A stretch of DNA of 64,000 nt from Octopus vulgaris (taxonomy: Eukaryota): assembly GCA_951406725.2 (NCBI GenBank), contig OX597817.1, positions 175,832,001-175,896,000 on the forward strand, read 5' to 3'. The notes beneath the pieces are model-generated. The model did no database searches. It was not told the DNA's origin and saw only the letters and a program-made list of their open reading frames with translations. Positions 1,259-1,324 of this stretch are shown one piece after another. A program made the position numbers and the translations under genes. Numbering within the stretch: position 1 is the stretch's first letter; every line of letters begins with the position of its first letter.

Positions 1259-1324
1259 CCGGAGTAAACACATAAATGTGAAACAAGGTGGAAAAAAGAG
1301 TACTCAAATACCAGTGGTAGAGTA
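1259..1324 (-). mobile_element. Solo 66-bp 3' tail of the PLE at 56037-58400, inserted in (TA)n
   Basis: Identical to 56037-56102 (ccggagtaaacacataaatgtg...ccagtggtagagta); TA repeats on both sides. Confidence 0.85.

Follow-up and report, generated by a model that had tools for sequence, protein, structure and literature searches.

Solo Tails of a Hydra-type Penelope-like Retrotransposon in Octopus vulgaris Appear to Stop at a Second, Hairpin-associated Insertion End

Results

Solo tails and the long insertion

Judged by their sequence, two lone pieces of 66 and 71 bp in the Octopus vulgaris genome are genuine ends of a Penelope-like retrotransposon (PLE) that stop at a second insertion end, here termed site B. 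They lie in a stretch of 64,000 nucleotides (the window; contig OX597817.1, positions 175,832,001 to 175,896,000), which also holds a long insertion of the same element. We consider it probable that these solos represent the 71-nt tail of a Hydra-type PLE, bounded by terminus A and site B, and that they come from two reverse transcriptases (RTs), each placed by a conserved RNA hairpin and priming on the two nicked strands of a (TA)n target, the A cDNA being halted at an occupied site B and the B cDNA failing. The features of the window are as follows.

1259–1324, minus strand: solo tail 1, 66 nt, with terminus A at one end and the foot of hairpin 1 at the other, within a (TA)n tract
21912–21982, plus strand: solo tail 2, 71 nt, the entire tail, its end base adjoining site B
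56037–56107, minus strand: the 71 nt of the long insertion that remain unduplicated (its tail); terminus A, at 56037, abuts (TA)n
56078–56101, minus strand: hairpin 1 (RNAfold), with a 4-bp outer stem, a 3' bulge, and an inner stem-loop; laid out as in relatives, with a compensatory outer pair
56108, minus strand: inner terminus (site B), located 7 nt upstream of hairpin 1 and marking the beginning of the inverted arm; putative second RT start
56135–56183, minus strand: type I hammerhead-like motif from pattern scans, predicted cut at 56145/56144, stem II weak
57187–57927, minus strand: 3' part of the PLE ORF (thumb, linker, and GIY-YIG endonuclease), Hydra-type, 5'-truncated
57925–58400, plus strand: inverted arm, which abuts (TA)n at site B and carries a second ribozyme motif with its core at 58334

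The long insertion (56037–58400, sense strand minus) is flanked by (TA)n tracts and contains both the inverted, 5'-truncated copy and the one-sided tail expected of PLEs with a C-terminal endonuclease. Its inverted arm matches 56108–56584 with 475 identities, 1 mismatch, and 1 gap, and because the arm duplicates this segment, the unduplicated tail is exactly 71 nt long, equal to solo 2. The original prediction had described two solo copies of the element terminus, similar in length to the unduplicated tail, and this description holds: solo 1 is identical to 56037–56102 in 66 of 66 positions, and solo 2 (read from 21982 to 21912) agrees with 56037–56107 in 69 of 71, with 2 substitutions (BLAST E value of 2e-30 for each, in a search within the window). 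The same search returned no tail copies besides the long insertion and the two solos, and tail-pattern searches of metagenome, prokaryote, and viral collections gave no matches. Solo 1 has (TA)n at both flanks, the final TA being common to flank and element, and its hairpin motif occupies 1323–1300; solo 2 carries (TA)6 at the terminus side and a non-TA sequence at the opposite, inner flank, and its hairpin motif begins at 21918. The chance that both solos fall in the 6-nt interval of 66–71 nt is p = 0.0005 for ends distributed uniformly between 20 and 300 nt and p = 0.005 for ends between 20 and 108 nt, both calculated post hoc. A small second stem is present within the tail (56047–56058), and the two commonest tail variants, T56057C and G56058A, keep G-U pairing in the sense strand only, as read by hand from the contigs of the sequencing runs described below.

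The intron around solo 1 had been labeled as belonging to a tetraspanin gene. A 28-codon exon with a GT donor, which we take to resemble a tetraspanin N terminus, is located at 3635–3552 on the minus strand; it has no match in Pfam, and a PDB search returned weak ETV6 matches only, so that neither search confirms the label. Elsewhere in the window, a dispersed repeat of 830 bp occurs at 18630–19459 and at 41885–42714 (94% identical).

Clade assignment

The ORF piece of the long insertion is 57% identical to a 713-amino acid RT-endonuclease protein, in which the RT core lies upstream of the part preserved in the 5'-truncated window copy. Pfam returned no hit for the ORF piece, and another homolog gave a weak GIY-YIG hit below the cut-off. 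The GIY-YIG core is without CCHH, there being no cysteine between the VVY and YTG motifs, and the conserved Glu and Asn are flanked by CxxC and CxH (CRLC ahead of E208 and CRH at the C terminus). The second cysteine of the CxCX5C-type linker is a phenylalanine in the window copy, and the linker is intact in P0001. The latter also has the N-terminal motifs RWR and DKT (RWK and DKT in the definition of the Hydra clade), in a region absent from the window copy. (TA)n targets flank the long copy on both sides and each solo at its A end. By its motifs and its targets, the element agrees with the definition of the Hydra clade given in the available text of Craig et al. (2021; PMC8557442). We rejected the Penelope/Poseidon clade, whose definition (CCHH present and cysteine linker absent) is the reverse of what is found in the window ORF, and dropped the Neptune clade after comparing the ORF motifs with the clade definitions. 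The window also contains another GIY-YIG endonuclease fragment at 61951–61697 (minus strand), which differs from the Hydra type in having cysteine pairs within the core as well as upstream of it, and a degraded C-terminal piece of a related PLE endonuclease at 59774–59872 (plus strand, E value of 0.005).

Ribozyme motif and hairpins

The hammerhead-like motif was recognized by its pattern, with a core at 56174, a stem I, and a palindromic helix III (loop 3). As had been predicted, the putative cut is 108 nt from terminus 56037, and both solos lie wholly downstream of it. Rfam has no hammerhead match for the element at E values up to 1, and the 10.1–11.1 pair is A-A in the window copy; cleavage of the window motif is therefore only predicted. 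Two more hammerhead-like cores, at approximately 39398–39267 and 16262–16130 (both on the minus strand), are followed by (TA)n some 130 nt later and probably mark the ends of other PLE families; the hairpin pattern has no match at either of them.

In relatives of the element (48 metagenome loci and 14 loci from prokaryote assemblies apparently carrying animal DNA), we surveyed the ribozyme motifs that have at least 85 nt of continuing, non-TA sequence (n = 18). A hairpin is located at +40 to +61 past the cut in 13 of these, compared with 0.85 expected from shuffles, and is absent from 5, one of which is a rearranged copy. It consists of a 4-bp outer stem (usually GCTC/GAGC), a 3' bulge of 2–3 nt, and an inner stem that varies, with compensating changes of outer pairs in the window, L005, and L059. 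An inner stem of at least 2 pairs is found in 21 of 24 motifs, which are not independent of each other, and in 4 of 25 chance matches. In the window element, the common variants within 56079–56102 (n = 3) all map to unpaired positions of the hairpin (6 of 24; p = 0.01). The fold of the whole 164-nt end is not better than that of shuffles (z = 0.25), and a MAFFT alignment of the hairpins was too gappy to count pairs.

A second hairpin follows 55–66 nt beyond the first in seven loci (L003, L005, L010, which is a tandem array, L011, L050, L055, and L059), and the ORF start is found shortly 3' of it where the sequence reaches that far. In two relative families, one represented by L059 and the other by C716 and C733 of assembly G001, the sequence continues past terminus A into the second hairpin and the ORF start. 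The RNA of these families would thus extend beyond A, and the original claim of internal priming is supported. Bare hairpin patterns are unspecific when used alone (103 matches compared with 56 in controls in G001), and the two-hairpin pattern has 4 matches in G001 and 4 in controls. Sixty regions around at least 70 pattern matches without a locus were examined and kept only if a ribozyme was present upstream or TA downstream. A TA-plus-hairpin scan of genome contigs gave 20 matches in prokaryote records, which we took as chance, and neither a second search with P0001 nor a search of the viral collection returned relatives. Several assemblies filed as bacterial (L049–L062 and G001–G005) contain contigs with PLEs and TA microsatellites, which apparently represent host animal DNA, with G001 comprising 12 Mb.

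Insertion ends in relatives

The 3' ends of G001 copies fall into two classes, A and B. All six B-ended copies of family F1 end at -7 from hairpin 1; the offset is -7 and -6 in F1c and -6 to -5 in F2, the B ends of F4 and F7 are compatible with -7 given the ambiguity of the TA, and B in the window is unambiguously at -7. In each of the families examined, B is followed ∼7 nt downstream by the hairpin motif. The A ends of G001 copies are located 52–60 nt past the hairpin start. In the two families that have both an A-ended copy and a continuation, A is at -8 to -5 (L059) and -9 to -5 (F7) from hairpin 2. One A and one B end are found in 8 of 8 counted inverted insertions, namely that of the window and, in G001, C575 (twice), C72, C721, C628, C61, and C733; the count leaves out a nested mixed-subfamily pair (C3 of G001) and the F2 pair on C61, which has no TA flank at its outer end.

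The original prediction expected truncation points to gather at or below the cut, with a peak near 66–71 nt. The 5' end could be placed for 19 A-ended G001 copies, a count that leaves out C72:7642 and, on C733, the F5 piece. Short ends occur at B and at the cut, and 14 of the 19 pass the cut, 12 of them crossing the entire ribozyme and 2 stopping 5 and 10 nt past the cut (cut-5 and cut-10). One copy, on C562, stops at cut+1 (∼106 nt, with TA on both sides), another ends 21 nt short of the cut (cut+21), and three stop at B or at most ∼11 nt from it. These three comprise a true solo (C61:3418–3495, where an AT-rich repeat blurs the end over ∼10 nt) and two A pieces joined to an inverted B arm (C61:10683 and C733:5416). 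One of the 12 copies crossing the ribozyme, the full-length unit C716 with a frameshifted ORF, itself begins at the foot of hairpin 1, where solo 1 ends. The B-primed piece of C61 stops at the cut within 1 nt, and altogether 2 of 12 short ends are at most 1 nt from the cut (p ∼0.013, calculated post hoc and before two further ends were added). The short copies in G001 form one class at B and a separate one at the cut, alongside a majority that reads through; the sample is small, was partly found via the hairpin pattern, and under-samples copies shorter than ∼50 nt. True solos were found three times only (two in the window and one in G001), and the solo tails themselves are minor by-products.

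Insertion ends in public sequencing runs

Contigs of four public sequencing runs were aligned to 56025–56324 (15173, 7429, 6057, and 4595 contigs); our results on loose ends rest on the 24 of 633 rows listed. Run depth represents summed contig word depths, which are inflated at variant sites, and was not used as copy number. A loose end at 56103 is preceded by (TA)n in all four runs (79, 30, 40, and 33 contigs), is the largest listed row only in X1, and is accompanied by the variant G56107A in each run. This is expected from copies that end at 56108 against TA and points to B as a second terminus throughout the family. Among the 24 of 633 loose ends listed, none is located at the predicted cut and none is of the solo type (tail, then TA at 56102–56107), and no indel scar at the cut is among those listed. 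We read the loose ends at 56075, 56111, 56114, and 56115 as sister subfamilies rather than truncations.

Five of at least six opposite-strand joints listed reach 56180–56182, directly 5' of the ribozyme, leaving from 56056, 56073, 56106, 56111, and 56116, the last three of these positions being near B on the tail side. Their clustering suggests a third stop point at the 5' edge of the ribozyme (56180–56188). Nine contigs of X5 have a fold-back loose end at a short palindrome, at 56188. G001 copies show comparable stops, at cut-59 to cut-45. A single X3 contig exits the element at 56144 and re-enters it at TA plus terminus, which favors the original model, in which RNA cut by the ribozyme serves as the template.

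Discussion

We propose that a dimeric RT-endonuclease, bound to two RNA hairpins, would nick both (TA)n strands, with one cDNA starting at A and the other at B, each ∼7 nt upstream of its own hairpin. The usual product would be an inverted pair with the tail at one end. A tail plus an inverted arm would form when the A cDNA halts at B and a long B cDNA is made, and a solo tail when the A cDNA halts at an occupied B and the B cDNA fails. Tail length would then equal hairpin spacing, predicting a second hairpin ∼7 nt beyond 56037 in intact RNA of the window family, among whose sequences we saw no hairpin 2. By analogy with the element of the green anole considered below, we infer that the ends are RT start sites; binding of the hairpins by the protein, its action as a dimer, and a halt that occurs during insertion would likewise be parts of this scheme. 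A-ended copies are without hairpin 2, so that new A ends would need a tandem donor or a cut RNA that is circularized or jumped. In most inverted pairs, including that of the window, the A-primed strand runs far beyond B, which would require strand displacement or a second RNA. In its widest form the proposal seems to us evenly poised between right and wrong: throughout the Hydra clade, the hairpin pair may act as a ruler that docks the subunits of an RT-endonuclease dimer, with starts 7 nt upstream and twin priming as the normal route, and solos, tail-plus-inverted pieces, and cut-site ends may be snapshots of this process, possibly on cut, circularized RNA.

The main rival explanation keeps the two-hairpin start-site model and differs in the last step alone: the solos would be footprints of a deletion that removed both inverted arms after insertion (hairpin/cruciform deletion) and left the unduplicated tail. 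Long palindromes are unstable, near-perfect palindromic A+B pairs occur (C575 of G001 and the fold-back loose end in X5), and such a deletion would by its geometry leave ends precisely at B (solo 2) or at a short TA repeat next to it (solo 1). We nevertheless regard this route as rather unlikely, since the deletion would have to be one-armed at C61:10633–10733, at C733, and at the joints from 56106, 56111, and 56116 to 56180–56182, and since solo 1 retains 100% identity to the long copy and the 476-nt inverted pair of the window persists. Ordinary 5' truncation, in which short cDNAs attach to the TA target wherever AT-rich microhomology first permits and match B only incidentally, would be in line with the TA shared by solo 1 and its flank, with the AT-rich bases surrounding B, and with the scattered stops in G001 (cut+21, cut-5, and cut-10). 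It is made very improbable by the 5' junction of solo 2, which has no TA flank and lies exactly beside B, by the patch 56102–56107, which scores less than 5 of 6 against (TA)n and thus below 56050 (5) and 56198 (6), and by the recurrence of the same stop point in other families.

According to the original prediction, the RNA runs from one ribozyme cut to the next and is primed by RT at a point 108 nt in from its 5' end, the solos arising where synthesis stalls ahead of a template jump. Run-off at the end of a cut RNA predicts 108 nt rather than 66–71 nt; the solos end at B, 37–42 nt short of this, and their match to B would be left unexplained. Internal priming, the ends at the cut (C562, the B piece of C61, and the X3 contig), and the A-ended copies without hairpin 2, which require either a tandem donor or a template that is circular or jumped, all speak for this model, and circular templates are proposed in the available text of Cervera and de la Pena (2014; PMC4209133). 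The same text describes minimal PLE ribozymes as cleaving poorly as monomers, 14 of 19 A-ended G001 copies pass the cut, and no indel scar or loose end at the cut is among those listed in the runs. In the green anole element PAc, cleavage is dispensable: according to the available text of Frangieh et al. (2024; PMC11167929), ribozyme mutants left insertion unchanged in vitro, and the cut coincided with neither the beginning nor the end of any RNA read. That text, the Poseidon study to which the original prediction refers for internal initiation, offers no support for a stall ahead of a jump. As an account of the solos, the cut-to-cut reading is thus hardly credible, and the earlier explanation was mostly wrong; the use of cut RNA as a template probably does occur sometimes, in a minor and separate class. 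The ribozyme cut likely does not set the 66–71-nt length and instead explains other, less frequent ends near 108 nt, which form a class of their own. RNA running from cut to cut may be circularized or efficiently jumped.

The sole biochemical study of a PLE concerns a Poseidon element and, in its available text, names no conserved positioning signal for the one-sided tail and the inverted ends. A hairpin that recurs at a constant distance from each end provides an annotation rule for Hydra-type ends, and positioning by hairpins would mean that PLEs, as the sister group of telomerase, are connected with template starts defined by structure. In the open-access literature searched, we found no paper on solo tails or on the hairpin pair.

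Comparison with known systems

The kind of element, its tail, and the principle of two starts are already known. In L1 twin priming, reportedly described by Ostertag and Kazazian in 2001, both target strands are said to prime and an inverted 5' segment results. The second start is variable and internal in L1, whereas here it appears fixed and the cDNAs often overlap.

The ribozyme motif resembles the minimal PLE hammerheads of PMC4209133 in being of type I with a short palindromic helix III. It differs from them, as far as they are described in the available text, in that the window copy is without the G10.1–C11.1 pair and the U4C variant is common in the runs. The same text reports opposite-strand hammerhead pairs 100–700 bp apart. 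With the Hydra clade as described in the available text of PMC8557442, in which the word 'hairpin' is absent, the element shares the ribozyme motif, the (TA)n targets, the inverted 5'-truncated copy, and the one-sided tail. PLE tails are given there as generally 30–40 bp long and ascribed to resolution by the endonuclease, compared with 71 nt in the window and ∼55–66 nt in the relatives.

PAc belongs to a different clade (Poseidon) from the window element. According to the available text of PMC11167929, the tail of PAc lies between two RT start sites, and the PAc protein extends both target strands and is predicted to be a dimer; solo tails, template jumps, and template switches go unmentioned there. 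The starts of PAc lie inside the ORF at an AC-rich stem-loop, whereas the ends described here precede the start of the ORF, each with a repeated hairpin ∼7 nt to its 3' side. Like PAc, the window element would start internally, downstream of the ribozyme, at an AT-rich target, and genomic ends at two fixed, tail-bounding sites, from which we infer RT starts, recur in the window, in all four runs, and in the families of G001.
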